From the IMG/VR virus record IMGVR_UViG_3300043411_001076: a stretch of DNA of 64,000 nt. One strand, written 5' to 3'. Below are positions 1,666 through 57,112 of this stretch, piece after piece (the stretch's first letter is position 1; each line of letters begins with the position of its first letter). This DNA is from a virus (lineage: Duplodnaviria; Heunggongvirae; Uroviricota; Caudoviricetes). The notes beneath the pieces were generated by a model. The model saw nothing but the letters and a program-made list of their open reading frames with translations, was not told the origin of the DNA and did not search any database. Both the position numbers and the translations under genes were made by a program.

Positions 1666-1680
1666 TAAAATTGGTTACTA

Positions 1681-1706
1681 GGGGCTTCGGCCCCTTTCAC
1701 ATTTTC
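1681..1706 (+). terminator. intrinsic terminator
   Basis: GGGGC-TTCG-GCCCC hairpin then TTTCACATTTT. Confidence 0.6.
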
Positions 1707-1722
1707 AAAAAAGGTAATAAAA

Positions 1723-5438: not shown

Positions 5439-5580
5439 TTTCTATGTTACGTTTTTGTAGGTTCTGCGATATAATAGGCATCAGAAAGGTAGTAGCTAAT
5501 AGCTACTGCGGCGACTTGGATCGTTTTAAGGTTCTATCTATATGTGTAGTTGAACCTTAAAGCATTTTTTGGGAAAGAAA

Positions 5581-16596: not shown

Positions 16597-16611
16597 ATTA
16601 AGGAATAAAAA

Positions 16612-17607: not shown

Positions 17608-17638
17608 TTCTGGTTATTCTTACACATAAGGAAGTAAG

Positions 17639-18646: not shown

Positions 18647-18648
18647 GT

Positions 18649-32470: not shown

Positions 32471-34636
32471 TCAGCCAGCATTAAACTCTGTAACGAGTTT
32501 TTCAATGTCAGCTTTCAATAGAGTCTTCTTATCAAGAAGTTCTGTAAGTAATTTATCGAATAATGGACGATTATCAGCCAAAATCGTCTGGCAACGTTTT
32601 TGCTGTTCTTTTAGAATATTATCAATGTGAACATCAATTTTATTCGATAGTTCAGCACTTACACTAGGACGATCATCTTTGTCGTGAACATGACCGACAG
32701 GTGCTGTAATTGCTCTCAATGTAGCATCTGACATACCCAACCGTTCTACCATGAGTCTAGCGATATCAGTAGCTTTTTCGAGATCGTTCGCACAACCAGC
32801 CGAAAAATCACCATAAATTAGGAGTTCTGCTTCACGACCGCCAAATAGGATGCAAATGGTATCCAGGAATTGACCGCGTGTTTGAACGTATTTCTTATCA
32901 CCTGTCTCATGCAATACGTAACCAAGAGCACCTTCTTTATCAGAAGCAATGGTAATTTTTTCAATAGGTTCACTATTTGTAGTCTTTAGTCCAATGATAG
33001 CATGGCCTACTTCATGAACTGCAATTACCCTTTCTTCTTTCACACTCAACTTAATTTTTGTAGATGCCGATTTAGGCAAAGCAGCCATACAATTTTCTTC
33101 TGTAAGCAAAATTTCTTCGGCTTTAATGAACTTTCCCTTCTTTGCAGTTTCTTGAGAACGTCGAATGGATTCACGTTTCAATCCGCGTGCAATAGCGTTC
33201 AAGTGATCACCTGAAAACTTGAGATTGTTCTTAACGTCAGAGTATCCGCCTGTACGATCTACGAGAAACTTAATCAGTTCGTCAGACAGATTAAGATTGA
33301 ATTTTTTACGGTACAGATCAAGGATGATCTTTCTATCGTCTTCTTTTGGGTAAGGAATCTCAATCTGCAATTCAAAACGACCAGGACGTAACAGTGCAGC
33401 ATCGATACTTTCCACAAAGTTTGTGGTGGCTACGATAAATACAAGATCTTCCTTACGGAATCCGTCCATTTCTGTGAGTAGTTGGTTAACCATTGAGTGT
33501 TCAACACCGCTACCACCGTAAGTACCACGGTGAGTTGCAAAGCTATCAATTTCGTCAAACACGATAATTGACGGTGCCGATTTTCGTGCCTTCATAAATA
33601 CGTCACGAATGTTTTTCTCTGAATCACCAACCCACTTACTTTTTAGTTCTGGACCAGAAACAATAATGATTGTGGCATCCAATGCAGTGGCCATAGCCTT
33701 TGCAAAGAATGTTTTACCCGTACCTGGAGGTCCAGAGAAAATCATACCTTTTGGTATAATTTCTTCAATCTGCTTAACCTCATCTACAGAGGTTAGTGTC
33801 TCCTTATAATTAAGGAGTTCAAGAATTTCGTTTTTAATGCGTTTTTTTACTTCTGAGTACCCACCGATGTCATTATCCAAACTTACGTTTGGAAAATCTA
33901 CATCTGAGGTGATAGTCATATTACGAAGTTCTCGGTACAATGCATTTGTCTGAGACTCGTCATCTTTATTATAATCTAAACGATCATGAAAAGACTCAAG
34001 GACTTCACGTAGTCTAACAACGTTCATCCCAGAAACATATTTATACAATTTGAAAGGATTAAATTCTTTATGTCCAAATTTCTTGGCCTCTGTCTGAGTA
34101 ATTACACAAGGCAGAATATCACGTGTAATTCCAGAAATCGTTCTCTTAGCCGAGAATAGATGTTCAATAGGCTCTGGAATTTCCAAAGAAGGATCTTTAA
34201 ACATGACGATACGAACATCAGGATTATCGTAGACAGCAGCCATCAATTCTCTACTCGTATCTGTCATACCTGATTTAGAGGTAGTAACTGCAACGTCAAG
34301 GTGAGGAATAAACAAGCAGATATTAGATTCACCAGAGAAAATTCTCACAAGCGTTTGTGCCAACAAGTGTCGCATAATATTTCCACCACTTTCAGGATCT
34401 GGACCTGCAATGAGGTGGCTGGTAAATTTAAATGCTGTATTGTCTTTCAATGCTGTACGAATAAGTTTATACACATAAGTATAAAGTTGCTTCTCACATT
34501 CAATGAGAACGTTCATTCCCTTTACAATCTTATCAACGATCCATTCCAAATCTTCACGATATGCGATTTGTACAGCATTCAAATGTGTCAATTTTGCAGG
34601 CAGTGAACTGATCTGTGTCAAAGTCTTATCCGACAT
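32471..34636 (-). CDS. FtsH-like AAA+ ATPase / M41 zinc metalloprotease, no N-terminal TM region
   Basis: Walker A GPPGTGKT, Walker [37 protein letters not shown] (HEVGHAIIG), [33 protein letters not shown] matches the FtsH protease core; ORF-track start 34729 is TTG, ATG 34636 preceded by AAGAGAGAAAAGAAG. Confidence 0.8.
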
Positions 34637-34736
34637 CTTCTTTTCTCTCTTCTTTTCTTGTTTTTGATTAACACCCACAGACAGTCTCTGTGAGTTCTTA
34701 GTATAAAATAATTGATAATGAATGTGCAAATAAAAA

Positions 34737-40690: not shown

Positions 40691-42235
40691 ATGAACGACA
40701 ATCAAGAACTCGGATGTCTGTATCTAAACCCAGAAGATTTACAAAATTTCTTCTGGGCCTCCCTCTCTGAGAGAGGTCACAAAAATGAACCTACCGCTTG
40801 GTCATTTAGACAGGCTATCACATGGTACATTGAACTTTATAGTAAAGGTTGGGACTCTGTCCCATTCTTTTTTGTTTATGACTTGGGATTGCTTCTTATG
40901 GAAGCTAATAAATTTCAATTCCGAAACTATTCGGAAACAGATGTTACGAAAAACACAGAAGAAGTTAACGCCCAGATTAGTCGTCGTGTAACCTATCAAA
41001 ATAGAATCTTAAATAGATTTTTGGCTCTCCCTGTATTTAGTGAATTACATGATTTTGTGGTAGAATCGAAAAACCCAAAATTGCAAATTGCAGCTATTTT
41101 GTCTTACTGGTTAGAACCAATTAAGAAATCTAACATTGAGTCTGTGCAGACATCTGCACAAATTCTAAGACAACTTACAAGTCCAGCTATTACTGTAGAA
41201 GAGGCTAGAGTAGCGGTAGAACAGTTACTAGAAGCCCCTAATTATTTCTATGATCAACTTGAAGAAGTTATCCGAGTAATGTCGGAGACACATCTGTCAA
41301 ACTTAATCCAGCCCGAAGACATTTTTATTATTAAAAATATCGAGGCGTTAAGCAGTGACGCCCTGCGTCTTTCTGCAAAGCAAGTAGTAGGTATTGAACA
41401 ACAAATGGGAGATGTAGACCATCCTCCCGTACATATGAGAAAAGAAGCACCCCAAGCACACGTTAATCTTTCAGACGTAGGTTTATATCCTCAAGGTGGA
41501 TTAGATCAACTTTCTAATAGAGGAAGTATTGAAAATCTTGTAAGAACTGAATTGGCTTATGTAGACGATAAAGCCGATATTGATATGTTTACTATGCGTT
41601 ATCTTGAGGGTGAGCTTCTATACTACACTAGAGATGAGGCACAGCTTCTAAGAAGAAACAGAACTACTCATATTTCCCTTGAGTTCGGGCACGCTCACCA
41701 TATCAAATACCCTAACCATCCAACTCAAATGTCTATTCTTTTACGGGCTATGACAGCCCGATTAATTGACGATTTATTTAAGTTATTTGCTAATGACTCA
41801 TTAAAAGTTATTTTACATATCCATGATATTAGATCTTCTGATGCTGTAGAACTGTGGAAAATCCGATTCAAAGATCAGTTGACTAGAAGTGATATGCAAT
41901 TAAATGTTGTAAACTCTCCTCCATTTGCTAATGTGAAAAAGAAAGACTTTAAAGCTTTGCAAGAAGAAACTGCTAAATACATTGATACTGGTAGATACTC
42001 TACATTAATACGCATTTCTCCGTTAGAACCTCTTTCTAATGAAGAATTAAGTCTTGCAGGTAGACAGGGATTAAATATCCTGCATCTACAATGTCCTTTC
42101 AAAAAGCCTGCTGAGAAAAAAGAGGACGTACCAACCCAACAAAAATTTATTGGTGTAACTTCAGATGATAGAAATATTATCGAAAGCCTACACGAAGCTA
42201 GAAAGTATCTCTTGTGGACTCTCTTAGGTTGCTGA
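40691..42235 (+). CDS. hypothetical protein (514 aa)
   Basis: Long ORF; followed by bidirectional terminator. Confidence 0.55.
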   Translation: MNDNQELGCLYLNPEDLQNFFWASLSERGHKNEPTAWSFRQAITWYIELYSKGWDSVPFFFVYDLGLLLMEANKFQFRNYSETDVTKNTEEVNAQISRRVTYQNRILNRFLALPVFSELHDFVVESKNPKLQIAAILSYWLEPIKKSNIESVQTSAQILRQLTSPAITVEEARVAVEQLLEAPNYFYDQLEEVIRVMSETHLSNLIQPEDIFIIKNIEALSSDALRLSAKQVVGIEQQMGDVDHPPVHMRKEAPQAHVNLSDVGLYPQGGLDQLSNRGSIENLVRTELAYVDDKADIDMFTMRYLEGELLYYTRDEAQLLRRNRTTHISLEFGHAHHIKYPNHPTQMSILLRAMTARLIDDLFKLFANDSLKVILHIHDIRSSDAVELWKIRFKDQLTRSDMQLNVVNSPPFANVKKKDFKALQEETAKYIDTGRYSTLIRISPLEPLSNEELSLAGRQGLNILHLQCPFKKPAEKKEDVPTQQKFIGVTSDDRNIIESLHEARKYLLWTLLGC

Positions 42236-42258
42236 TACACATTATAATAAGATAAAAG

Positions 42259-42290
42259 AAAAGCCCCAATTAAGGGGCTTTTCTTTTATC
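42259..42290. terminator. bidirectional intrinsic terminator
   Basis: AAAGCCCC-aattaa-GGGGCTTT then TTCTTTTATC; between convergent genes. Confidence 0.65.
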
Positions 42291-42297
42291 TACTCAT

Positions 42298-42723
42298 TTA
42301 TATATTTCTAAGTAACTCACACCTATGTATCTCATCATTAAATAGATTAACTAGTTTAGTCATTAATTTATCTACTAATTCTGGAAGATAGTACAGAAGG
42401 CTGCTAATAATTTGTTCGTCAGTAGTTTGTTTTTCGTCAAATGGCAATTGAAATAATCTATGTGCATGATATACTTTATCTGCATGTTCTTCTAAATTCT
42501 CAAAACATATAAATTCCGTTTTCTCTTGGTCTATAAAAAATTCGAAATGAAAATAACGTGGATCTAAACGAGTAACAATCCCCCCAAACCAACCGGGATT
42601 GTTCGGAAAGTGGGCATAGTTTTCATGGTACTGACAATACCGAATGTTTCGATCAAATACACAGCCTTGTTTTTCAAATAGATCTTGAAATTTATCTAAC
42701 AGGATATTTAGTCTATCTTCCAT
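42298..42723 (-). CDS. hypothetical protein
   Basis: 141-aa ORF. Confidence 0.45.
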   Translation of the reverse strand: MEDRLNILLDKFQDLFEKQGCVFDRNIRYCQYHENYAHFPNNPGWFGGIVTRLDPRYFHFEFFIDQEKTEFICFENLEEHADKVYHAHRLFQLPFDEKQTTDEQIISSLLYYLPELVDKLMTKLVNLFNDEIHRCELLRNI

Positions 42724-43171
42724 GAGTTAATCCTTTTTTATCCTCTTCGTAGTCTTCGGACACTGACAAGAAAAACTCTTGCGCTATTAAATCCTGCTGA
42801 TAATCATCAGCAGCTATAAAAATACTTGATTTAAGACTTGATTTTAATGATTTAAATAAACGGTCAAGTATATTTGAGGATTGTTCTTCAATATCTCCAG
42901 TAGAGTTAAAGGTCAATAGACAAATATTAACATAACTCCCTGTTCCCTTAAAATCCTCGTAAAAAATTATATCCTGTTTGTTAAATACCCTGATCTTAAT
43001 ACTTGGCTTTCTAAACGTAGTATAGGGGACTTTAAAATGAATAACATTTTGATACGACCCATAAAGGCCGTCATTTTGGTTTTCTGTCCTAACCACCCTA
43101 TCTACAGAGATACCTTTTTCTGTAAAAATTTCGCAGATCTTGGCTGTTACATGATTTAGCATAGTGGACAT
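42713..43171 (-). CDS. hypothetical protein
   Basis: 152-aa ORF directly downstream of the helicase gene. Confidence 0.45.
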   Translation of the reverse strand: MSTMLNHVTAKICEIFTEKGISVDRVVRTENQNDGLYGSYQNVIHFKVPYTTFRKPSIKIRVFNKQDIIFYEDFKGTGSYVNICLLTFNSTGDIEEQSSNILDRLFKSLKSSLKSSIFIAADDYQQDLIAQEFFLSVSEDYEEDKKGLTHGR

Positions 43172-43172
43172 G

Positions 43173-46100
43173 TTATTCCTCTAGTTTTTCTTTTTCTTCG
43201 TTATCAACTGGAAGAACGTCTTCCAATTCCGTATTTTCTTTCTGCTGTAAATTATTAAGATCTATAATACAAGACTCATCAATAAACATTGAGGGTCCAG
43301 AATCTTTATTCATATGGTCTTTTCTAGACCATACAGCCAATACAGTTTCCTCACCTCTTGTAATAGCTACATAGGCAAGTCTTCGTTCCTCTCTTATTTT
43401 ATTATTGTACTTGTAGACATTTTCTGATTTAGGATGGTCATAGATAGGTTTCTTATTATTCTTAGGACCAACTAAAAATAATCTACGGCCATCTGGAAAT
43501 GTAGTACTATTCATAACTATAAATACGTGTTTGGCTTCTAATCCTTTCCACATGTGAACAGTATAAATCGGAACTGCATCTTCTTCACCAGCCTTAATTT
43601 TATTCTTATTCGATTCAGCTATTTTCTTTAATTTAAAGAAATAGTCAACAACTGTCTTAATATCATTTATACCGTACTCTTCGGTTTCCCCCTTCTTTTG
43701 AGAAGCCGATAATATCTGCTTTAATGATAGAACGACAGGTAGATCATATTTTTTTACAACTGGAGCATTTGTGTCTGTTGATACTTCTAATGACTCTTCA
43801 GAGTCGTCTGTAACGGTATCATCTTGGACATCCTCATTTACATCATTTTTTACTTCTTTATCTAAATCTTTTAAAGCATCTCTCAATGTCTTTCTATTTG
43901 GATTACCGTCTTTATAATCTAGCATGTAGTCTAGTAAAGAATCAAATGAAATATCTGCTTCTGCCGCTTTTGCCCTAATATCTAAACACATCTTTGCATG
44001 GGATAATAAACTAGACTCCATAGACTTCTTAGAATAAACTGGCATAGATTGACTTAAAACAAGCCGTAAAATACCCTGCTCATTTAATAGTCTATCAAAC
44101 CTAGAATTTGTGTTTGTAAGTTGTATAATTTTCTTCTTTAAAGTGTCAGCAGATAAACCTGTTTCTGGAAAAGAAAGAGTGGCATAGAACATATCTGCTA
44201 ATTTATCCCGATCATCTACGACTGCTAAACTCAACCAATTTATTAGTCTAGTGAGTACAGGATCAGACATCATCGATTTTGATTTTATATAAGGAATTTG
44301 ATATTTTAAAGCAGCTAATTCAAAACCATGAGATTCATCATTTACCCTAATAACAATACCAAAATCTTTCCACTTTAAGTCTTGTCTTTCGTCTTTTAGT
44401 ACTCTTACTTCTTTCATTACATATTCACATAACTCGGAATAGCTATCAAATCCCCTAGAAGCAACCAATCCTGAACCCTTATGAGGAGTAGCCTGACATG
44501 CCATAGGAATTTGATAAGACGAGTTATGACTTATCAATGTATTAGCTGCATCTACTATCTGTTCTCCAGATCTATAATTTGTGGATAGTAAAATAGTTTT
44601 AAAATTTCCACTTTGTAAATCTGATCTGTGAATAAATTCTTCTGGGTCTGCTGATCTAAAAGAGTAGATAGAATTATGACTTAGTACATTATTTCCAAAG
44701 AAATTAGATGCGTCATTCACATCTAAGTCTATGAAAGAATCTTCTACTTTCTCCACAGATACTATTTTATCTTCATAGACATTTCCAAAATCATCTATAC
44801 ATATAACTCCCATTCCGACCTGCACGGTCATACTCATCATTAATTCAAAAAATTTCCCATTAAACCCTATTTTTTCTACGATATGCTGTCCATATGAAGT
44901 TGCAAATGTAAGGGCCTCTCTGTAATTATCAAAATTATGCATACCATTTAAATATTTGACAACAGTTCCTCTATCTGTATGTGCCAAAATATTTACATAA
45001 TTCTTATAAGACCTGTTACTGGAATCACTTGACACCCAAATCCTATGATTTGGTGACATAATTAATAGATTACCTGTATCTGTCGTTATCTTATATCCCC
45101 AAGTCCAAGATGTCTCACAAACATGAGATACAACTTGCTCAACTACTTCAGCATTTCTATAAGAAAGTATCTTATCTCCTATGTTTACCTCTGATAATAA
45201 CTTGTAACCATCTTTAGTAGAAATACAGGTAGTTGCGCTAAGACACTGTTTGTCATCCCCAATTATAGAATAAACTTCAGCAGTTAAACCTCTTGCAGGG
45301 CGAGATTTATCTTTGATTTCCCAAGTTGCATCAGTTGCAGGGTTTCTGATTCCTGCAATATATTCAAAGAATCTGTGTTGAGCAGCATTAAGATCCTGTC
45401 CCTCATCAATAAGAACAACTTTAAATCTGGATTGTAATTGGGACCGGGCATTTGAATTATGCTGCATTAAATCACCAAATGCCCATAATGTATCTGTCCT
45501 ATCAAGAGGAAATTCATTACCTAATACTTTCTGAATACTAGGCTCATTTCTCTTTAACCATTCATAAGCACCCCATACCGCTAACATACAGGGTGATTCT
45601 GGTGGTATATGAGAATTATCTTTTTCCTCTCCTGTCTCTGAATAAGTATTGTAAAAGTCCTTATACTTATCCCATAACTCTTCTGGATTTCTGAACTTGC
45701 CGCTTAATCTAGCAACAGCGGAAGCTGCATCCTTTATAGTCAATTTATAAGGATATCCGATATTAAACCACTGATTAGCAGGTTTGTATAAGTAGGGACT
45801 CTTCTTTGCTTCTTGAGCTACTAGATTTCTTTTAGACTCTTGTTCTGTGGAGTCTTGAAATGACGCTAATTTTGAAATTTCAGATCCTGTCTGAATCCCT
45901 GTTATATCCTTAAAATAAGATTTCCCACTGTTTGATTTAGAAAAATTGAAATCAGTGAGTCCAATAAATAACTCTATTCTTTCTATGTCTCTTTCAGAAA
46001 TTTGGGATTTAATATTAGGAGAGATACTTGTTATATCATTAGAGTAATTATTAGTGATCGTATTTCTTAATAATTTTAGGGTTGCATTAGATAAATTTAA

Positions 46101-48125
46101 TCTCTTAGTTCTCCCATATTCTTCTATGGAATCTTTTAATCTAAAACCTATATCGGAATCAGAGGCAACAACAATATTTAAAAACTTCACTAGAGCATAG
46201 TCTAATGAGTCATCATCATTAAACATCCCTACTTGACATACAGCCGCTCTTAATAAAGAATTAAATAAGTCCGTCTTATCGGTAAAATAAAACATTCTCT
46301 TTACGTATCTATCTTTACCATATTTTAAGAGTAAAGAAGCTACGGTACTATCTATAGTCCTACCGATATATAGGTTATCGCCTTTTAATCCGTCTTTAGC
46401 CATTCCTAAAAAATGTTCACATCGTTCCCTTAATTCCTGTGAAGATTTTCTAGTAAATGAATTTGCTATGATTTCTTCTGGACGAGCTAATCCAGACTCA
46501 ATACTTTTAGCAACTGTCCCTGCCATCGCTCTTGTTTTTCCAGATCCTGCACCCGCAGCAACTATTGATGATCCTCGTTGTAAGATAACTTGGGTCTGTT
46601 CTGAAGAAAAACCAATTCTCTTAATAAGATCATTTTGTCTATTATTTACAGCTTGATTAGCTATAGTAGCTGTAATGGCTTCATAGTTAGGGGTGGTTTT
46701 TAATACTTCATCTAGTTTCGTCTTCTCTTGATGCAAAGATAATGAAGCTGCATCGTATAAATTACCTGTGGACACATTAGCCAGAGTTTCTAACTCAGAA
46801 ACCTTTGCAGCCAGTCTATTTGCTGCCAATGCCTCGGAAGATATCCTATCGACAGCACTACGTTCTATTCCTAATCGAGTGCAGACAGTATCCATCCATT
46901 CAGACGTACCTAAAAAACTACGATAATTAGGAATCGTAGACAGTTCACCTATTAAACCTTTTCTATTTCCCTTTTTCTCTGAAAATATTCTTAATAAATT
47001 TGAAATGTCTTCTCTTAAATGTAACGGAAAGAAATTTGTAAATTCAGCATTTTCAGAAGAAATATCGATAATCTTCTTAACATTAATAATAACCTTTTTC
47101 CAGTCTCCCTTATCAAAGGATAACAAGTCCAAGGGTTCTAGTAATGCTTCCAGATCGGTATTTCCATTTACAATGGGATTTAGAATATTTAAAAATGATG
47201 CTTTAATAGTCCTTGTATGTTTATTGGCTATTAAAAGACCAGAAGCCGATAGATTCTTTGATTCTGGTGATTCAATCAAAGTAACTAGAAATAAGACTGT
47301 GATAAAGTTGAATCCGTCAATAAAGGATTCATATGATACGGATCTAGCTAAATTGTTATTAACAACAGACTCTTCCTCTAAACCTTCACTCTTCTTAATT
47401 GTCACAGGAACAGATACAGAGATTACGTCGTCTACCGTTTTAATGCCTGTAGAACTATCATCCTCAGAATCAGTATCTGAGGATGAGTCCATCACTATAT
47501 TTTTAGATAAGAAGAAATTATCAGGATGCCCTGTTATTGTAATGTAATGGTTCTCTGTGAGCCAGTTTTTCAAATCTGATATTTGATTTTCTTTTAACTT
47601 TGACCAATCAACTGTAAATGAACCTTTTAAATTAATCGGTGAATTTATATATTTTACACTAACTCCCGATCCTATTAAATCTCGTATTTCCTTCCTTACA
47701 TTTGATATTTCATCAACAGAGAGTCTAAAAATAATAGGAGATGTGATAGAGTCTCCCTCATCTGTATTTTCAGATAGAACAGTGTCTGCTTTCAAGGCAA
47801 ATATATTATTGATGCCTTCTGATATAGCAGTTAACTGGATTTTTGGAGCGTTAATACCTCCAATAGATTTTACATCAAGATTAAATTCAGTAAGAAATGA
47901 TAAAATCTGTTCTAATTGTTCTCTTGTCAACCTTCTGGTTGTTTTTATGGAGAACGACCCATAACTAATTGGATCTTGGCTGTCTAAATTTACAACGATA
48001 TTAACAGGTAGAAGAGGGTATCGTTTTGTTAGCTGTTTATCTATCTTATTTATCTGAGATTCAGATAATCTTATAAAAGTACGTTTTGCAGCCAATTTAT
48101 TCAGACAAGATGCAATTTTAAACAT
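43173..48125 (-). CDS. 1650-aa protein: ~500-aa unknown N-terminal region fused to a UvrD/PcrA-like SF1 helicase interrupted by a mini-intein
   Basis: Walker A AAGAGSGKTRAMAG, motif II VVLIDEGQDLN, motif III IIGDDKQ|SIYSFRSA split by the intein, motif VI TVHMWKGLEAKHVFIV, RRLAYVAITRGEETV. Confidence 0.8.
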   Translation of the reverse strand: MFKIASCLNKLAAKRTFIRLSESQINKIDKQLTKRYPLLPVNIVVNLDSQDPISYGSFSIKTTRRLTREQLEQILSFLTEFNLDVKSIGGINAPKIQLTAISEGINNIFALKADTVLSENTDEGDSITSPIIFRLSVDEISNVRKEIRDLIGSGVSVKYINSPINLKGSFTVDWSKLKENQISDLKNWLTENHYITITGHPDNFFLSKNIVMDSSSDTDSEDDSSTGIKTVDDVISVSVPVTIKKSEGLEEESVVNNNLARSVSYESFIDGFNFITVLFLVTLIESPESKNLSASGLLIANKHTRTIKASFLNILNPIVNGNTDLEALLEPLDLLSFDKGDWKKVIINVKKIIDISSENAEFTNFFPLHLREDISNLLRIFSEKKGNRKGLIGELSTIPNYRSFLGTSEWMDTVCTRLGIERSAVDRISSEALAANRLAAKVSELETLANVSTGNLYDAASLSLHQEKTKLDEVLKTTPNYEAITATIANQAVNNRQNDLIKRIGFSSEQTQVILQRGSSIVAAGAGSGKTRAMAGTVAKSIESGLARPEEIIANSFTRKSSQELRERCEHFLGMAKDGLKGDNLYIGRTIDSTVASLLLKYGKDRYVKRMFYFTDKTDLFNSLLRAAVCQVGMFNDDDSLDYALVKFLNIVVASDSDIGFRLKDSIEEYGRTKRLNLSNATLKLLRNTITNNYSNDITSISPNIKSQISERDIERIELFIGLTDFNFSKSNSGKSYFKDITGIQTGSEISKLASFQDSTEQESKRNLVAQEAKKSPYLYKPANQWFNIGYPYKLTIKDAASAVARLSGKFRNPEELWDKYKDFYNTYSETGEEKDNSHIPPESPCMLAVWGAYEWLKRNEPSIQKVLGNEFPLDRTDTLWAFGDLMQHNSNARSQLQSRFKVVLIDEGQDLNAAQHRFFEYIAGIRNPATDATWEIKDKSRPARGLTAEVYSIIGDDKQCLSATTCISTKDGYKLLSEVNIGDKILSYRNAEVVEQVVSHVCETSWTWGYKITTDTGNLLIMSPNHRIWVSSDSSNRSYKNYVNILAHTDRGTVVKYLNGMHNFDNYREALTFATSYGQHIVEKIGFNGKFFELMMSMTVQVGMGVICIDDFGNVYEDKIVSVEKVEDSFIDLDVNDASNFFGNNVLSHNSIYSFRSADPEEFIHRSDLQSGNFKTILLSTNYRSGEQIVDAANTLISHNSSYQIPMACQATPHKGSGLVASRGFDSYSELCEYVMKEVRVLKDERQDLKWKDFGIVIRVNDESHGFELAALKYQIPYIKSKSMMSDPVLTRLINWLSLAVVDDRDKLADMFYATLSFPETGLSADTLKKKIIQLTNTNSRFDRLLNEQGILRLVLSQSMPVYSKKSMESSLLSHAKMCLDIRAKAAEADISFDSLLDYMLDYKDGNPNRKTLRDALKDLDKEVKNDVNEDVQDDTVTDDSEESLEVSTDTNAPVVKKYDLPVVLSLKQILSASQKKGETEEYGINDIKTVVDYFFKLKKIAESNKNKIKAGEEDAVPIYTVHMWKGLEAKHVFIVMNSTTFPDGRRLFLVGPKNNKKPIYDHPKSENVYKYNNKIREERRLAYVAITRGEETVLAVWSRKDHMNKDSGPSMFIDESCIIDLNNLQQKENTELEDVLPVDNEEKEKLEE
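44673..45245 (-). mobile_element. mini-intein (191 aa) in helicase motif III
   Basis: CLSATTCIST... (block A), SPNHRIW (block B), IDLDVNDASNFFGNNVLSHN followed by +1 Ser; excision restores GDDKQSIYSFR. Confidence 0.7.
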
Positions 48126-48186: not shown

Positions 48187-48786
48187 TTATTTAGAACTTA
48201 CAGGGATTATAATCCTTTTCTCATTATCGTTTTTAATAGCTGTATGAGATTCTTTTTCTTTAGATAGAGCCTTATCTAAATCTTGTTTATTTAATTTTTC
48301 TATGTTCGCTTTTCCAGCTTCAATAACTCTAAACAATTCCCTCTGATCTTCTGTAAGTTTCCAAGACCCGTCATATCTATTAGTAAGTCCAACAGTGCCA
48401 GACTTTACTCGTTTAACAATAAATGGGTCCAATTTCTTAAACTGGATTACCCAATTCATTGAAAACACCTCCCCCGATTTCACCATAATAGGATCTCCCA
48501 AAGATAATTTCTGCCTAAAAATCTCCTCTCCTGTTCTTATCTGTAATGACAAATCTAAATAATAGACGGGCAGATAGAATTCTGGCTTGGTAAAAGGGAT
48601 AGTAAAATCGATGGATAAGACAGCGTCACCTAATACTGGCTTTCTATCAAAAATATTAACCATCCCAAATCCAACCACTTCTATCTGAAGATCATTTGCA
48701 TCTATTAATCTATTTATAGCGTCTTGCTCATCCTCTGATAGAGGAGCATAGGCAAACGATTCATTTTTCCCGCCTAAAATATTCAT
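48187..48786 (-). CDS. hypothetical protein
   Basis: 199-aa ORF. Confidence 0.45.
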   Translation of the reverse strand: MNILGGKNESFAYAPLSEDEQDAINRLIDANDLQIEVVGFGMVNIFDRKPVLGDAVLSIDFTIPFTKPEFYLPVYYLDLSLQIRTGEEIFRQKLSLGDPIMVKSGEVFSMNWVIQFKKLDPFIVKRVKSGTVGLTNRYDGSWKLTEDQRELFRVIEAGKANIEKLNKQDLDKALSKEKESHTAIKNDNEKRIIIPVSSK

Positions 48787-48791
48787 AATTA

Positions 48792-49115
48792 TTATCCCCT
48801 TAGGAGTATCGATGGAATATGTGTATTTTGCATATTAGCAATGTCTTTATCTAAAGCCTCCCAATCAGGCAGTAGATACCGCACATTTGGATTATTTTCT
48901 ATAAGTAAAGTTAATCTTTCTTGTTCTTCAGGAAGAAGTGTTTCAAATATAATGTTAAAGTCAGTTCTTGCTTTAGGAACCCTATATAAATAGTATAGGA
49001 TTTCTTCATCTGATATAATAGCTGGATTCTCTGGATCTCCAGGTATACCTTTTAAGAAATTTCTATTAGTTTCATCATACCACCATTTACCTGGAAGAAC
49101 AGATTCCCCTGGCAT
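48792..49115 (-). CDS. hypothetical protein
   Basis: 107-aa ORF. Confidence 0.4.
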   Translation of the reverse strand: MPGESVLPGKWWYDETNRNFLKGIPGDPENPAIISDEEILYYLYRVPKARTDFNIIFETLLPEEQERLTLLIENNPNVRYLLPDWEALDKDIANMQNTHIPSILLRG

Positions 49116-49140
49116 ATGTCTACCTCAAGAGTGAATTAAT

Positions 49141-49656
49141 TTAATTGAAATCAATACGTTTTGTTTTAACAGACACTGCATCTGTCTTTGGAACATTATC
49201 TAAAGTAAATATAAAATTTGGGACGACAGGAGATCCTGTTTTTAACATGCCTACAGGTTTTCCATTAGAGCAGTCCTCATTATTTGTTTTAGTATCTGTC
49301 ATATTAAGATCTAATCTTAATTCAGATTTTTGTTCTATATTTGTAGAATCTGGCTTCAAATCTTCTTCGGAAGAAAAAGACAAATCTTTAATATCAGATT
49401 TTTTCGATTGCTTTTCTACACCCTTCTTTACTGTCTCAGTAGCTTCCTTCCTACCTCTTTTCTTCTGAGATGTAGGCTCTATAACTTTTTCTACAGGCTT
49501 TTCTTCTTTTACAGGTAGCGGTTCTTTTATAGATAGAGAAGGCTGAACATACGATTTCAAAACTTGTGATTCGGATTTTGGTGGGCGACCACGACGTTTT
49601 GGTGCTTCTTTAACTTCAGAGTTTTTCGATTTAATTGTCTTTTTCACTTCGCTCAT
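49141..49656 (-). CDS. AT-hook-containing basic protein
   Basis: PKRRGRPPKSESQ canonical AT-hook, KKRGRKEA; ORF-track start is TTG; ATG (MSEVKK) preceded by ACGGAGG. Confidence 0.5.
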   Translation of the reverse strand: MSEVKKTIKSKNSEVKEAPKRRGRPPKSESQVLKSYVQPSLSIKEPLPVKEEKPVEKVIEPTSQKKRGRKEATETVKKGVEKQSKKSDIKDLSFSSEEDLKPDSTNIEQKSELRLDLNMTDTKTNNEDCSNGKPVGMLKTGSPVVPNFIFTLDNVPKTDAVSVKTKRIDFN

Positions 49657-49714
49657 AATTAAAACCTCCGTTAATTGAGATAAATTTCCCAATATTTATA
49701 GTATAGTACTTTAA

Positions 49715-50143
49715 TCATTCCTTTTCAATTATCGGATGAAAATAAGTACATAAATCATAGTATTTCTTATAGTTATCAGATAAAGTAAGTAATGCTTTTG
49801 AGGTTTCCTCATCTTCTCTAATAACATAGCAAGGAGATGTTCCTTTTAGAAATAATTCCTCTTGTGTTTTCGGAATAAATAATGACCAGTACAACGGACA
49901 TTCAACACATTTATCACATAAATAAGGATAAAATTTTGGATAGTCTTTGAGTATCTCTGTTTTGCTCTGCTGAACTGTGCATTTTACCGAAAGTCCATTT
50001 TCAGATAAACACGAAATTATATTATTTCTCTCCGTATTTGTAAGACATAATGTCCAAACAGAGATATGATTAGCCTTATGGTTAAAATGACCATTTCCAA
50101 GTATATAAAGACTAAAATCCACTGGACCACAGACTTCAATCAC
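49715..50143 (-). CDS. Cys-rich hypothetical protein
   Basis: CDKCVECP cluster; ORF-track ATG at 50197 would overlap the upstream gene by 62 nt; GTG at 50143 forms a GTGATTGA stop/start overlap with AAAGGA 7 nt upstream. Confidence 0.35.
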   Translation of the reverse strand: MIEVCGPVDFSLYILGNGHFNHKANHISVWTLCLTNTERNNIISCLSENGLSVKCTVQQSKTEILKDYPKFYPYLCDKCVECPLYWSLFIPKTQEELFLKGTSPCYVIREDEETSKALLTLSDNYKKYYDLCTYFHPIIEKE

Positions 50144-50831
50144 CGATATATCCTTTTGCTTTATAGTACCATCCAACTTTTCTATCTGAGTAGTCATTAA
50201 CTGTCTCCACCATTAGAAATATAGCATTTAAATTATTTTCCATACAGAATTTATAAATATTTATAGAGAATACAGATATGACATTTTGTAAGTAATCAAA
50301 ATTTTCATTTAAATTGTCATTAATATCTAATGTCCATCTGTCTTGCTTTAATATGGTATTTTCATCTTCAGGCATCTCAACTTGACTGACTATTATATTT
50401 CTATCTGTCAAATGCTTAGATACTGCATTCCAGATATTTACAGACATCTGCTGTCTGTACCGTGTCGTCTTGATATCAGAATGTAATGAAGATCCTTTCT
50501 GACCAGCATCTCTACAAACTAGCTGTGTTTCTGTACTATGATATTTTGGTAAGCTCTCGGCCTTTTCATCAATATATCGATTATTTGTTTCCAATATCTT
50601 CTCAAACTGTAATCTCTCTGCTAATGTAGCTATTAAAACAGGATTATATTTTACTACACCCTCTTGTGTTTTAAAAAATGCCACGCTTTGATATTCAGGA
50701 CATGACATACACACAAAGGATATTGCAAATTTTAATATTTCTTCTGGTCTAGCATCCGTACCTAACTGATTTATAACAAAAATTTGATTTAGTACATCAT
50801 CCCCAATTTTAGCTAGTATATTTGCTGACAT
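50136..50831 (-). CDS. hypothetical protein
   Basis: 231-aa ORF. Confidence 0.45.
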   Translation of the reverse strand: MSANILAKIGDDVLNQIFVINQLGTDARPEEILKFAISFVCMSCPEYQSVAFFKTQEGVVKYNPVLIATLAERLQFEKILETNNRYIDEKAESLPKYHSTETQLVCRDAGQKGSSLHSDIKTTRYRQQMSVNIWNAVSKHLTDRNIIVSQVEMPEDENTILKQDRWTLDINDNLNENFDYLQNVISVFSINIYKFCMENNLNAIFLMVETVNDYSDRKVGWYYKAKGYIGD

Positions 50832-51789: not shown

Positions 51790-54537
51790 TCACTGCTCCA
51801 ATCTATCGAGACTAGCTTGTATCGTATTCTTAAAAACAAGATCGTCAAAACAATTAATGGCTATACCCTTATAAGCTAATTTGATTTTTATTTTATCTTT
51901 CGTAGTGTCATCTGCAATATTATTATGTAAGTATACCACTAACTTTTCAACATCCTCCGATGATAATTCTTTTTTCAAGTTAAATACTTTAGTCGCTATC
52001 TCAGGTTTTGACTCAAATCTGTTAAATTTCTTAGACTGTTCTACAAATTTAGGAAATAAGTGGGCGTACTCTTCTGGCCAATCCTTTATGTTATAATAAC
52101 AAGGATAAAAACTAAAATCCCCATCCCAAGTTCTACCAATATCCATATCGATATCTAAAGGAACTGGTAATTTTATACTCTTGATAAAGGTATTATCAAT
52201 CATAATAGGTCTTAACACTTCAACAAATTCTTGAGCAAGAGATTCCTTTACCTCAAAAACTAATTCGTCATGCATTGTGATAATGAGTCTTACTTGATCT
52301 AATGCTGGATTTTCCAAATTAATCCATCCTCTCTTGACAAATTCAATATATGACAAGGACATAGCTATTTTAGTAATATCAGCAGAAAGACCTTGAATAG
52401 GACTATTCGTGCAGTTTCTTTCTGATTTGCTTCTGATAGCTCCATCTTCATGGAGAATATCAGGAACTGGATATTTTCTATTAAATTTAGTAAGTACAAA
52501 CTTGTACTGTCTAGCAAAGTCCTTAATATCTTCCCACCATTTAGTAAGTCCTACGTAAAATTGGTCGAATTTATTTTTGAACCGCTTTGCTTCTGTTATC
52601 GTACATTTTGTCGCTCTAACAAGAGCATTAGGACCACCACCATAAGCTAATGAGAAGTTGCCACCCTTCGCATTTTTTCTTAACTGTGACCAGTTATTTG
52701 ATTGTTTTGCTTCCTCTCCATAAACACCGACAGCAGTAAGACTATGGAGATCCCCAATTTCTAGTGATCCACATTTATAACAATACTTAACGGCTGTCTC
52801 CGATCTTGGAAATAAGAATCCACACTTAGCGCATTTGAAATATTCTTGCTCCCATAGCTTTTCTCTTGATAAACTAGTAGCAAGTCTTAACTCAACACCT
52901 GCATAGTCAGCAGCTACGATAATATATCCGATTCTCGCTTTAAATGCATTTCTTAGCTCCCGCATGGGTCTAATTTTCTTAGCGTCAATAGACGCAGGAA
53001 CACCATGTATGAAAACTTTAGCTTGACCTGTTTTCTCATAAGAGTCGTCTTTCTTATTTCTTCCGTTACCTGAATTTTTATCCTCTTTTACCTTAAATCT
53101 ACCAGTTTCCGTTCCTAAAGTTAAAAAACTAACATGAATAGAGCTATCTCTAAAAATAAGATCCGATTTGCAATTAGGGCATGTGTTCGTCTTATTATCC
53201 ATGAAGGATAATCCGCAAGCCGTACATCCCCATCCTTCATTAGCACCATCATACATATTGATCAGATAGGTTGATATACATTTATCAACTTCTCTAAATT
53301 TAGAAAGAATTTTCAAGAAAGGAAAACTATCGGAATGTTTCTCGATAACTTTATCTAATTTATCTTTCCCTGTCGCTACTCTTCCTGATTTTTCTTTATA
53401 TTCTAAGTCTGGTACTTTTAATTCAAGAAGTAATTCGCCCAATTGTGTAGAGCTTGCAATATTGTAGGTCGGTCCTTCTTTTTCCAATGCAGATTTCACA
53501 TATTCTTCTGGATATGTCATTTGGAAAAATGGGCCTTTATTTATAGTTCGCTTTATCTTATCTCCTTCTTTTTTAGCTGCCTTTTTCATATTGATAAAGC
53601 AACGAGGATCACTTTTTTTATAAGGCTTCAATTCAGGGTTTTTAGTCTTCACATAGTTTTTAAGAACTAAATAAGAAATAGACGTTGCGTTTCTTCCCAA
53701 CAAAGAATCTAATTCACTATAAATTCTATCCCCGACATCAAAATACATCTCTATCGCTTCTTTAGTTAATTCACATACTTTATCCAGATCGACGAGAATC
53801 CTACAGCGTTCCATATGTCTTGTTGCCGTAGATACCATCTTCTCTAATCGATATATAAATTCTTGAGTAGCCTCCAATCCTTCTAATTTTAGACAAGTAT
53901 CTCTTTTACTTTTATATAAGGCAAGTGTACAAAACGCATCACCACAAGCATATCCAAGAACATTTTCATCAGAAGGATCTAGTTCATTAAAGGTACATTG
54001 TGTAGGTCTATTGTAATTTGTAATTTCATCATATTCAATCATCTCAAGATTCAAATCCTCTTTTGAAATAACTTTCAAAGAGAGATTAAATCTTTTAGAG
54101 TTTTCTAAATAAGAAAGGATCATGGTATCTTCCCATTTATTTGGGTTGTCCCATGCCCCACCTAATGCACCATAACCGTTATACTGTAATAATTCGTGAT
54201 CGAATTTTCCATTATGAAATACAAATTTAATATTAGCAGCAAATAAACGCTGCATCTCAATAAATACAATGGACCACGGAATATTATGCTTAGAAGAAGA
54301 TCCTGTGTGTCCTACAGGCAAATAAAAAGCTTCTTTATCATTACCACATAAACAAAAACCAGTGATCTGGTGTCGTGTCTGTTTATTGAATACACGAATA
54401 TCCAACCCTGTAGCTTCTAAGTCTACTGCACATGCCCCATATGGAGAACTTAATAAACTATCTATTACACTAGTAATAGTGTCTACCGTAACCATGACAA
54501 AACTTTTTGTTTTCATCCACTCTTTTAATAAACTCAT
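51790..54537 (-). CDS. family A (Pol I-like) DNA polymerase with 3'-5' exonuclease domain and Cys4 zinc-ribbon inserts
   Basis: Exo I AVDLEATGLD; motif A DYAGVELRLA; motif B RKNAKGGNFSLAYGGG; motif C ITMHDELVFEV; inserts CTACG...CPNCKS and CAKCG...CYKCGS. Confidence 0.85.
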   Translation of the reverse strand: MSLLKEWMKTKSFVMVTVDTITSVIDSLLSSPYGACAVDLEATGLDIRVFNKQTRHQITGFCLCGNDKEAFYLPVGHTGSSSKHNIPWSIVFIEMQRLFAANIKFVFHNGKFDHELLQYNGYGALGGAWDNPNKWEDTMILSYLENSKRFNLSLKVISKEDLNLEMIEYDEITNYNRPTQCTFNELDPSDENVLGYACGDAFCTLALYKSKRDTCLKLEGLEATQEFIYRLEKMVSTATRHMERCRILVDLDKVCELTKEAIEMYFDVGDRIYSELDSLLGRNATSISYLVLKNYVKTKNPELKPYKKSDPRCFINMKKAAKKEGDKIKRTINKGPFFQMTYPEEYVKSALEKEGPTYNIASSTQLGELLLELKVPDLEYKEKSGRVATGKDKLDKVIEKHSDSFPFLKILSKFREVDKCISTYLINMYDGANEGWGCTACGLSFMDNKTNTCPNCKSDLIFRDSSIHVSFLTLGTETGRFKVKEDKNSGNGRNKKDDSYEKTGQAKVFIHGVPASIDAKKIRPMRELRNAFKARIGYIIVAADYAGVELRLATSLSREKLWEQEYFKCAKCGFLFPRSETAVKYCYKCGSLEIGDLHSLTAVGVYGEEAKQSNNWSQLRKNAKGGNFSLAYGGGPNALVRATKCTITEAKRFKNKFDQFYVGLTKWWEDIKDFARQYKFVLTKFNRKYPVPDILHEDGAIRSKSERNCTNSPIQGLSADITKIAMSLSYIEFVKRGWINLENPALDQVRLIITMHDELVFEVKESLAQEFVEVLRPIMIDNTFIKSIKLPVPLDIDMDIGRTWDGDFSFYPCYYNIKDWPEEYAHLFPKFVEQSKKFNRFESKPEIATKVFNLKKELSSEDVEKLVVYLHNNIADDTTKDKIKIKLAYKGIAINCFDDLVFKNTIQASLDRLEQ

Positions 54538-55006: not shown

Positions 55007-55558
55007 TTAACCTATTATCTGTAAAGCTTCATTTTTTATCTTTACCAAGTAATTTTTTATTATCGGTTCGGCATAGGATTTTCTAAATTCAGCAGAGCAT
55101 AACATATCATATTTTCTCCAAAAAACAATGGCTTGCTCCTTTGAGAAATAACGGTTTCTGGACAGATAAAGTAATAAATCTTCCGTGTCTTTTTTTACGG
55201 AAGAAAAGTCTTTTTCGCTTCCAGCAATAGGAATTACTAATTCTGTAACATCTTTATATGTTTTTATACTATATTTTGTTTCTAAGTAATCTAAAGCATC
55301 TGTAAACGTAAGATGCTTTTTATCCATAATAGTCTGAACTGAATCCCTTCTTTTACCACAACCGAAACAATGCCATACATTTTGATCATAGTATAAGTGT
55401 GCAGAGGGTGAATGGTCCTCTGACCCGTGTAAATCACAACTAAATTGTTGATTAGACTCATCATAAGCATCAACATCATAATTTAAGTCGCTTAATACTT
55501 TTCCTACTTTCACAGCTTTCCATATGATAGCTGCTCTTTTCTTTAATAGATCTTTCAT
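55007..55558 (-). CDS. DnaG-type primase zinc-binding domain (CHC2) protein, no TOPRIM domain recognised
   Basis: FSCDLHGSEDHSPSAHL...WHCFGCGKRRDSVQTIM...FTDALDYL matches zf-CHC2 (CPFHxExTPSF...HCFGCGxxGxxIxF). Confidence 0.6.
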   Translation of the reverse strand: MKDLLKKRAAIIWKAVKVGKVLSDLNYDVDAYDESNQQFSCDLHGSEDHSPSAHLYYDQNVWHCFGCGKRRDSVQTIMDKKHLTFTDALDYLETKYSIKTYKDVTELVIPIAGSEKDFSSVKKDTEDLLLYLSRNRYFSKEQAIVFWRKYDMLCSAEFRKSYAEPIIKNYLVKIKNEALQIIG

Positions 55559-55576: not shown

Positions 55577-57112
55577 TTAGGCATCAGGTAATGCACTTTC
55601 AAAGTCCAAATCTTCTGCATCAAGGCTGTTATCATCTTTTTCTCCATCATCAGTGCATGTGAGAATGCGCCTACACTCCCAATAAATTCTGGATTTAAAT
55701 GGCTCTAACAGAGATTCATCTCTGCTCTTTAGGTTCTGTAATAATAGCCTAGATTGTTCTCTTAATTCATCATTTAAAAATGACAAGGTAATAATATCCG
55801 CTGATTTTTCTACCTCGTTTGAATAGTTAAAAGCAGTTAGGTCATAAATACCCTCTTCTTTCATCGCCTTTCGATAACCATCACGACTTGTCTGATATAA
55901 TGCTAGAATGCCTATTCCCTCATCCCTATTAAATTTCATTGTTAGTTGTTTTGTTTCTCTAACAATTTCATTTAATGAGTCTGTTCTACTAGCATATTTT
56001 TCGCTAGATCTCAAAAGCATTAAGTGGTCAATAATAATCATCTTTAGTGGGTCACGTGCATGATGAATTTCCGCTACACGACCAATATCAGATATTTTAG
56101 TTCCCTTTTTCTGATTATATGACTCAGTTTCAATTATTATCTTTCCGTAGTTCTGCTCTGGATCTTCTAAATCAGCCAATACACGATTAAATAGAAATAC
56201 CTCTTCATTAGGTTTTAGTTCTCCCTTCTTTAAGAACTTATAGGATAATGAACAAGGTTCATTTACATTCGTCTGTATTCCTAATTCCAATCTATCTTGT
56301 TCAAACTTGTCATTAAAGGAATGCATGCAGACAAGTATTCTCTGTAATTGTTCAAATGGCATCTCTAAAGAATAATAAAGAACATTGTATTTATAGTGGA
56401 TGGCTTGGTTATATGCCCAATTTAGAGCAATAGACGATTTCATATGGCTTACGAAGGCAGCATGTATCCATAGCTCCTTCTTCCTAAGTCCACCAATATG
56501 AGTATCCCACTGTTTAATACCTGAAAATTGTCCCTGATTCATATCAGGATTTGCTTTTATCTGTTCATAATTTAATTTAAAATCCTCCAATTTTTTAGGA
56601 TCAAAAGCATTACCGTTAATAGATGCTCCCATTTCTGGAGATAAGATATCATGGGAGTTGTCTAATACATAATTAATAGCGTCTTCGGGTCCAAAAAGCC
56701 TAGAGGTTTCTCTTCCATTTACAATATCTCGTCCCGTCTGTACGATATCAAAGGCTTCTTTTAATAATATAGAAGCCTTTGTTTTCTTCTGGGATCTTAT
56801 TTCTAATCGAATATTTTCTACGAAATCTCCCTGATAAACAGGTTTTCTAGTTTTTAATATAAAAGTATAATCTATAACTGATGGTTCGTTTTTATTAGAA
56901 AAATGTGCTTGAACCGTAGATATTTCTGGATTATGATGATTATCTAAAAAGAATCTTAAAACAAATGAATAGAGAGATTTTTGCGCTGATGTATTCATTT
57001 CCAAACTTGAACACATCAATAAACTATTAAAATTATCACGTAATAAGTCTCTCTGATCCGTAATATCAAAAGCAATACATGAGCGAAGAATTACATCTAA
57101 TCGATTGTCCAT
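55577..57112 (-). CDS. DnaB-family replicative helicase with non-canonical P-loop
   Basis: YYSLEMPFEQL (H1a), KMIIIDHLMLL (Walker B), LALYQTSRD, ADIITLSFL; P-loop position reads AAFVSHMKSS instead of GARPSMGKT. Confidence 0.7.
   Translation of the reverse strand: MDNRLDVILRSCIAFDITDQRDLLRDNFNSLLMCSSLEMNTSAQKSLYSFVLRFFLDNHHNPEISTVQAHFSNKNEPSVIDYTFILKTRKPVYQGDFVENIRLEIRSQKKTKASILLKEAFDIVQTGRDIVNGRETSRLFGPEDAINYVLDNSHDILSPEMGASINGNAFDPKKLEDFKLNYEQIKANPDMNQGQFSGIKQWDTHIGGLRKKELWIHAAFVSHMKSSIALNWAYNQAIHYKYNVLYYSLEMPFEQLQRILVCMHSFNDKFEQDRLELGIQTNVNEPCSLSYKFLKKGELKPNEEVFLFNRVLADLEDPEQNYGKIIIETESYNQKKGTKISDIGRVAEIHHARDPLKMIIIDHLMLLRSSEKYASRTDSLNEIVRETKQLTMKFNRDEGIGILALYQTSRDGYRKAMKEEGIYDLTAFNYSNEVEKSADIITLSFLNDELREQSRLLLQNLKSRDESLLEPFKSRIYWECRRILTCTDDGEKDDNSLDAEDLDFESALPDA

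Follow-up and report, generated by a model that had tools for sequence, protein, structure and literature searches.

A predicted mini-intein in motif III of a very large UvrD-type helicase from a phage-like genome, and the helicase family to which its host belongs

What does the unusually long gene at 43173-48125 of IMG/VR record IMGVR_UViG_3300043411_001076 encode, and what is the segment that interrupts its helicase motif III? The stretch analyzed here, referred to as the window, comprises 64,000 nucleotides (nt) from a virus assigned to the Caudoviricetes. A preliminary description of the locus had proposed a 1650-amino-acid (aa) fusion of an unknown N-terminal region of about 500 aa with a UvrD-like helicase carrying a 191-aa mini-intein. 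With a probability of roughly 0.85, we read the gene as encoding the precursor of a UvrD-type superfamily 1A (SF1A) helicase with a class-1 mini-intein in motif III, which is predicted to excise itself and leave a 1459-aa member of a large-phage helicase family, preceded by a 255-aa add-on specific to its own lineage. The finding is a modest one: the preliminary description overstated the novelty of the locus, and its interpretation was otherwise largely right.

The minus strand of this region is a single ATG-initiated open reading frame (ORF) of 1650 codons, with a Shine-Dalgarno-like AAGAGA 9 nt upstream of the ATG. The precursor has a mass of 185.9 kDa, and removal of the 21.5-kDa intein would give a spliced product of 1459 aa and 164.4 kDa. 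The size and coordinates first given for the ORF hold; its strand had been left unstated, and a plus-strand reading was rejected because its translation is full of stops. Two Pfam matches flank the 191-aa segment, one on each side: UvrD-helicase (PF00580) at aa 509-960 (E 9e-31; 107.9 bits against a cut-off of 23) and UvrD_C (PF13361) at aa 1178-1600 (E 3e-23; 83.2 bits against 25.6). The ORF also matches PHROG 1967, “DNA helicase” (E 3e-55). The N-extein carries the Q motif (Q510), Walker A (GAGSGKT, residue 525), motif Ia, motif II (DEGQD, 907) and the GDDKQ of motif III (956-960), and the C-extein continues with SIYSFRSA, motif IV (TNYRS, 1182), the 2B region, motif V (VHMWKGLE, 1523), motif VI (YVAITRG, 1585) and an acidic tail. 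With the intein removed, all SF1A motifs (Q, I, Ia and II-VI) are intact, motif III only after splicing. The best PDB and NCBIfam matches are PcrA, Rep and UvrD, with PcrA at the top. The UvrD-like identity proposed earlier is borne out by the Pfam domains and the complete motif set, and we assign the protein by its motifs to the SF1A helicases of the UvrD/PcrA/Rep type, with predicted DNA-dependent ATPase and 3'-5' unwinding activities. Two full-length orthologs were found, P0001 (96% identity) and P0002 (64-65%). Ratios of nonsynonymous to synonymous substitution rates (dN/dS) of 0.01-0.08 across the parts of the gene indicate purifying selection throughout (an acidic linker reaches 0.196).

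The evidence for the intein begins with the string IIGDDKQ/CLSATTC...NNVLSHN/SIYSFRSADPE (slashes mark the splice junctions), which is present in the ORF and shows an insert that splits motif III exactly; the coordinates proposed for it are exact (Table 1). Position 1 of the intein is Cys961. Block B is LLIMSPNHRIW, with SPNH at aa 1024-1027 (S1024, H1027) and Ser in place of the usual Thr; block F is SFIDLDVNDASNFFGN, which includes FIDLDV (D1133) followed by NFFGN; and block G is VLSHN, with SHN at aa 1149-1151, His1150 being penultimate and Asn1151 terminal. The +1 residue of the C-extein is Ser1152. Cys1, the block B His, the block F Asp, the terminal His-Asn and the +1 Ser are invariant in the window protein and both orthologs, with the inteins of this lineage down to only 63% identity. 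Motif III is contiguous, as IGDDKQ[AS]IYxFRG, in all 11 aligned intein-less relatives, a clean insertion when compared with these UvrD homologs, and a motif scan found the intact pattern in 36 proteins of the helicase family described below. The spacing between motifs II and IV is 77-93 aa in that family, compared with 276 - 191 = 85 aa in the window helicase. The preliminary description had named a conserved 2B insertion lacking Hint blocks as the case that would speak against an intein. This case fails, as the segment has blocks A, B, F and G, relatives are uninterrupted, and sequence mapping onto PcrA places the insertion in domain 1A rather than 2B. No Pfam match to a LAGLIDADG, HNH or GIY-YIG domain was found in the intein, and it is because the homing-endonuclease domain is absent that we class it as a mini-intein. 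Between the window and P0001, its dN/dS (0.027) is comparable to that of the helicase core (0.012-0.037), and GC content and GC content at third codon positions (GC3) are even across every part of the gene; together these indicate a resident element, vertically inherited since the window and ortholog lineages split. On its sequence features, we identify the 191-aa segment as a real class-1 intein.

Splicing would then proceed by an N-S acyl shift at Cys961, trans-esterification onto Ser1152, cyclization of Asn1151 aided by His1150, and an O-N shift that joins GDDKQ to SIYSFR. Until then the precursor would be inactive, with the intein seated inside the domain 1A motif III, which links ATP hydrolysis with the binding of DNA. 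All three inteins of the window lineage keep a second cysteine near the first (Cys1 and Cys7, in CLSATTC or CVSSTTC; window 45227-45245, minus strand), a pair absent from the inteins of the phi92-like, LR745208, SPO1-like and bacterial relatives. Conceivably, these two cysteines could form a redox-sensitive disulfide that gates splicing.

What, then, precedes the motor? The N-terminal 505 residues resisted most searches: no match was found in Pfam, PHROGs, NCBIfam or PADLOC, in pattern scans of IMG/VR, GTDB genomes and JGI metagenomes, or by tblastn against 50,697 phage records (E <= 1). An exhaustive phmmer search of 1.84 billion representatives returned only P0002, the 153-aa fragment P0013 and a repeat protein judged spurious, and a tblastn search for paralogs or split genes in the window and related loci found nothing beyond the two orthologs and a decayed fragment. 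The best phage match of both the helicase and the neighboring PolA is the 485-kb uncultured phage LR745208.1, whose homolog is a 1741-aa ORF (locus L004, 3138-8363, plus strand) starting at the equivalent of window aa ~263. A search with the first 794 aa of that protein retrieved about 40 proteins of 1044-1365 aa (P0073-P0111), encoded on contigs that reach 376 kb. In almost all members of this family Walker A lies at residue 247-303 (the range starts from 165), compared with ~525-526 in the window protein, and most open with a hydrophobic motif of the FxDxxxFxxA type (DFVDxAxFYLAL in the closest members). Direct comparison of aa 256-500 with the LR745208 N-terminus alone, by BLAST or hhalign, gave E values of 0.25-0.28, which are not significant; homology became significant only once a family profile of 36 sequences was used. 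Against this profile of the family's N-terminal extension (NTE), a window-lineage profile of aa 256-508 gave an hhalign probability of 95.7% (E 1e-8), with an alignment that runs end to end at a low (relaxed) mact setting. In a MAFFT alignment, the window start motif SFIDGFNFITVL and a near-invariant Trp410 are in register with the family NTE. The extension has a dN/dS of 0.011, and a search of PDB sequences with its profile found no match. A transmembrane reading of the hydrophobic aa 268-286 was rejected: with a Kyte-Doolittle score of 1.65 they do not exceed a segment from inside the intein, they are too few to span a membrane, and in the alignment they fall on the conserved start motif of the soluble family NTE.

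These comparisons place the window helicase in an undescribed and unannotated family that, as judged by its alignments, combines a helical NTE of ~250 aa and an enlarged 1B region with a normal motor core. The N-terminal half had been described as having no recognizable motif; this is true of Pfam, which finds nothing in aa 1-505, and is superseded for the NTE by the homology to the family profile. Likewise, aa 258-505 are a family extension rather than a fusion partner, and the idea of an unknown N-terminal region survives for aa 1-255, which are specific to the lineage. The helicase had also been called unusually large, with long insertions. A sequence alignment with PcrA (1pjr) gives ~185 additional aa in 1B, ~22 between motifs II and III, and ~59 in 2B, and Walker A and motif II are 380 aa apart, within a family range of 344-525 aa. 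The large size and the insertions are real, and the insertions are traits of the family rather than of this gene.

The add-on itself was modeled with low confidence. Both AlphaFold runs show a beta-alpha-beta-beta-alpha-beta pattern twice, and its halves are weakly alike (hhalign P 4.6e-4; shuffle z 3.3). We take it to be probably two ferredoxin-like modules followed by an acidic linker. The structure prediction that had been suggested for the N-terminal region yielded a repeated pattern and no significant fold match. The add-on has a dN/dS of 0.077. The linker carries a net charge of -9 over aa 211-255, with low predicted local distance difference test (pLDDT) values and indels between orthologs, and is the least conserved segment of the protein (44% identity to P0002; dN/dS 0.196). 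Among the 1.84 billion representatives, the add-on appears confined to the window lineage, known there from the two full-length orthologs plus a decayed copy. This last copy lies at ~1120-2185 of the 2185-bp contig L005 (Logan SRR28161539) and corresponds to window aa ~164-530 (the end of the add-on, the NTE and Walker A). Stop codons of all three kinds and frameshifts run through it, and we take it as either a pseudogene in decay or the result of poor assembly. A recoded genetic code for L005 was rejected on the same grounds, all three stops being present in addition to frameshifts.

Where did the intein come from? It is new in neither its site nor its family, and is best regarded as a new endonuclease-less member at a known UvrD site. 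The same motif III junction is occupied by homologous inteins in three other settings, namely phi92-like coliphages, SPO1-like Bacillus phages and a UvrD protein (P0003) from a Nevskiaceae metagenome-assembled genome, and 40 phi92-like phage records match the window intein over 84% of its length. A five-way alignment shows, in the longer inteins of 346-398 aa, an inserted domain that is marked by VYLMxRxxxGFRxG...PT and that Pfam does not recognize. The window intein lacks ~130-150 aa that are present in the PaulScherrer, LR745208, P0003 and CampHawk inteins, the endonuclease core being deleted, and retains the C-terminal ~70 aa of the domain (VNILAHTDRGTVVKY...FDNYREALTFA; dN/dS 0.019). From this alignment, the mini-intein appears to have arisen by endonuclease loss. 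Its ancestor would have belonged to the endonuclease-bearing family found at the same site in SPO1-like and phi92-like helicases, and, with the ~130-150 aa lost, it is probably now immobile and vertically inherited.

Other members of the helicase family host inteins elsewhere in the gene. In LR745208.1 (intein at aa 795-1192) and P0100 (aa 942 onwards), an intein follows directly after motif II, with the junction DEAQDLN[KR]/C...SHN/CQH, 46 residues upstream of the motif III site of the window protein; motif III is uninterrupted in LR745208 and lies beyond the contig end in P0100. The splicing parts (N, C) of this upstream type are 36% and 45% identical to those of the window intein, compared with 37% and 38% for the phi92-like inteins, so the upstream intein is as close to it as the allelic phi92-like one, and closer than the allelic SPO1-like one. 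A third site is the P-loop (GSGK/C...HN/T), occupied in P0100 (aa 306-566), P0110 (aa 276-535) and P0111 (aa 302-738) by an intein that differs from that of the window and, in P0110 and P0111, matches a LAGLIDADG domain. The P0100 gene holds two inteins. Overall, the family hosts inteins at no fewer than three sites (the P-loop, after motif II, and motif III), two of which hold clearly related inteins. Could one intein lineage have colonized different sites of one helicase family by ectopic transposition within the gene, with the add-on and NTE separately representing new tethering or regulatory domains? We put this forward tentatively, on the similarity figures between the inteins, and with the odds rather against it.

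The helicase gene lies downstream of genes for an SNF2 helicase, a DnaB-like helicase, a DnaG zinc-ribbon protein and PolA. The order SNF2-x-DnaB-x-DnaG-...-PolA is kept around P0001, P0002 and P0080 (in the window, in L001 and L002, and on the 222-kb P0080 contig), the SNF2-DnaB-DnaG-PolA neighborhood being that of the window, L001, L002 and L007. Small ORFs at 42298-43171 and 48187-50831 are also neighbors of the helicase gene. The gene is part of a long minus-strand array that ends at a strong bidirectional hairpin at 42250-42291. This perfect hairpin has an 18-bp stem, a GC core and flanking A/T runs, and lies between the convergent genes at 40691-42235 (plus) and 42298-42723 (minus); it likely serves as a terminator for both directions, at the end of the helicase operon. 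From this neighborhood we infer that the enzyme would act as a Rep- or PcrA-like accessory helicase in replication or recombination, beside the DnaB-type replicative helicase, and that the NTE and add-on would tether or regulate it. The genome is large, AT-rich and phage-like; a 12-kb megablast for isolated phages gave no match.

Several observations weigh against parts of this interpretation. The equivalog cut-offs of the NCBIfam PcrA, UvrD and Rep models are missed widely (the best, TIGR01073 pcrA, gives 148.8 bits against 911.2), and with orthology to the PcrA, UvrD, Rep, RecB and AddA equivalogs unsupported, the window helicase is not an ortholog of any characterized helicase. For Pfam PF14890 (Intein_splicing), the 191-aa segment taken alone passes marginally, with 36.2 bits where the gathering threshold is 35.8, and the full-length protein falls below the cut-off at 28.5 bits; block B has Ser where Thr is usual; and splicing is a prediction from sequence. 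AlphaFold predictions for the N-terminal parts are of low confidence (pLDDT 54 and 49), with no significant fold match. The replication role is drawn from gene neighborhood only. Finally, no virion gene was recognized among the ORFs scanned, and the “phage” label derives from relatedness to LR745208.1 and from the replication module.

Some of these observations would suit a dead or domesticated intein that has stopped splicing and remains part of the finished protein, perhaps serving as a regulatory or DNA-binding insert within domain 1A. Such an element might have lost its endonuclease, as this one has, and might show the unusual block B and the marginal PF14890 score; the ~70-aa remnant, constrained like the core, could even hint at a function other than splicing. 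Yet all splicing residues are invariant although the orthologous inteins are only 63% identical, and an unspliced insert within GDDKQ/SIYSFR should disable a motor whose motifs are nevertheless under strong purifying selection. We therefore consider a dead intein very unlikely. It is similarly improbable that the first 255 (or 505) residues are a separate product that only an assembly or annotation artifact has attached to the helicase, or that the helicase uses an internal start. The start of some 40 family members at the equivalent of window aa ~258, and the acidic low-complexity linker that divides the parts, are what such an arrangement might look like. However, the frame is unbroken in three independent assemblies (the window, SRR34217542 and SRR23592399), the add-on is under constraint, and no internal Met is conserved (Met212 of the window protein is Ile in P0001). 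Promoter-like sites, at 26 against 32 expected, are not above chance, and even the decayed L005 still has the C-terminal part of the add-on adjoining the NTE.

The role of the enzyme could also be read differently, as part of a conflict system (a Gabija GajB-like defense or counter-defense protein) instead of a replication accessory. UvrD-like helicases recur in defense systems, and the best PADLOC matches are GajB models, with E values down to 2e-32. These matches are confined to generic motor motifs, though, and are outscored by the PcrA and Rep models; no GajA-like or other defense partner is adjacent, and the SNF2-DnaB-DnaG-PolA module is kept in distant relatives. A conflict-system role is in our view highly improbable, and we retain the accessory replication or recombination helicase, made as an intein-bearing precursor, as the preferred reading.

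Table 1. Parts of the helicase gene and the replication genes near it (window coordinates)
Feature	Coordinates	Strand	Residues	Basis or location
Whole precursor ORF	43173..48125	minus	1650 aa	
Lineage-specific add-on (probable ferredoxin-like modules at ~aa 16-86 and 131-210)	47496..48125	minus	aa 1-210	
Acidic Ser/Asp/Glu-rich linker	47355..47495	minus	aa 211-257	Charge, low pLDDT, indels
Helical N-terminal extension (NTE)	46611..47354	minus	aa 258-505	hhalign, MAFFT
N-extein helicase part	45246..46610	minus	aa 506-960	Pfam PF00580, PcrA 1pjr mapping, motifs
Expanded 1B region	45534-46364	minus	about aa 588-864	Within N-extein
Predicted class-1 mini-intein	44673..45245	minus	aa 961-1151 (191 aa)	PF14890, blocks, homologs
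Putative endonuclease-domain remnant	44814-45026	minus	aa 1034-1104 (~70 aa)	Inside intein
C-extein helicase part	43173..44672	minus	aa 1152-1650 + stop	Pfam PF13361, PcrA mapping, motifs
SNF2 helicase	58203-60371			
DnaB-like helicase	55577-57112			
DnaG zinc-ribbon protein	55007-55558			
PolA	51790-54537			

The window holds a second, independent intein, as the preliminary description had stated. The ribonucleotide reductase large subunit (ATP-cone; 23164-26607, minus strand) contains a 380-aa LAGLIDADG intein at aa 425-804 (24196-25335, minus), with junctions GTNP/CFHPD...IVSGN/CSEV and Gly rather than His as the penultimate residue; it shows no sequence relation to the helicase intein (BLASTP E 0.56). 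To call the replication genes intein-permissive and intein-rich is fair, and restates a bias of inteins toward the ATP-binding motifs of replication proteins that was already known (PMC4760082).

Further genes in the window were noted in passing. An FtsH-like protein with AAA ATPase and peptidase M41 domains (each E ~1e-41) is encoded at 32471-34729 (minus) and is also present on the 133.7-kb P0002 contig (L001). A Ro60-like protein with TROVE and Ro60 von Willebrand A (vWA) domains lies at 5569-7194 (plus); Rfam scans, including Y-RNA-like families, and tRNA scans of the 64-kb window found nothing. The gene at 40691-42235 (plus), convergent with the helicase operon, encodes an ivWA-type von Willebrand A protein, with Pfam matches obtained via its L001 and L002 orthologs, and is listed together with a DUF4419 protein and an ADP-ribosylglycohydrolase (E 3e-40), with 403-3054 (plus) as the other location. 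Four tandem paralogous genes of 331-351 aa occupy 15565-19704 (plus), with pairwise identities of 25-38% (E down to 4e-19) and no PHROG match.

By itself, the helicase intein is of limited importance, being one more endonuclease-less copy that fits the known bias toward ATP-binding motifs, and small endonuclease-free inteins with a +1 Ser are useful for protein engineering, though many are already available. The work does delineate a coherent family of SF1A helicases, very large in size and encoded within replication modules of large or huge phages. Its NTE and expanded 1B are regions without structural or functional assignment, and the 255-aa add-on is the only truly orphan element of the window helicase. 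The inteins at several sites of this family form a compact data set on target-site change and endonuclease loss; if the colonization of sites suggested above is true, they would document how, in nature, an intein transposed ectopically inside a single gene.

How does this helicase compare with those already known? PcrA (1pjr), UvrD (2is1) and Rep (1uaa) have in common with it all motor motifs and the 1A/1B/2A/2B order. In contrast to these, the window protein has about double the length once spliced, and 505 aa precede its motor. It is closer in architecture to the family of LR745208.1 and P0073-P0111, with which it has in common the helical NTE, the enlarged spacing between motifs I and II, the motifs P.Y.Y...PA.QWFN.G and AVYGAYEWLK, and a neighborhood of SNF2, DnaB, DnaG and PolA genes. 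The P0073-P0111 members begin at the NTE, whereas the window lineage has 255 residues in front of it, and most of them are without an intein.

For the intein, the phi92-like phages (Justusliebigvirus) provide a close counterpart, in which the PaulScherrer protein bas60_0082 is annotated as “intein-containing UvrD / Rep family helicase precursor”. The motif III site is identical (GDEFQ/C...SHN/CIYQFRG), BLASTP aligns the N end at 38% over 73 aa (E 4e-14) and the C end at 35% over 97 aa (E 4e-13), and the two inteins have the block F/G string D[AT][AS]NFFGN.[IV]LSHN in common. They differ in size, as the phi92-like intein is 346-347 aa long with a full inserted endonuclease-type domain, whereas that of the window is 191 aa and keeps only the last ~70 aa of this domain; in the +1 residue, which is Cys in the former and Ser in the latter; and in the host, a phi92-like helicase of ~577 aa after splicing without an N-terminal extension. 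The intein of the UvrD-like helicase of SPO1 and CampHawk (Okubovirus), described previously (PMC3868849), also occupies the motif III site (GDDDQ/CQPAGE...LVTHN/SMYSFRGA). It is more distant, its N and C splicing parts being 29% and 16% identical to those of the window intein, and at 275 aa it retains an inserted domain of the same endonuclease type, with the signature AVYLMQKGEDFRVG. A published survey had counted 16 bacterial UvrD inteins (PMC4760082), and it is alongside these bacterial and phage examples that we place the window mini-intein, as a shortened relative at a motif III site already known from phi92-like and SPO1-like helicases.

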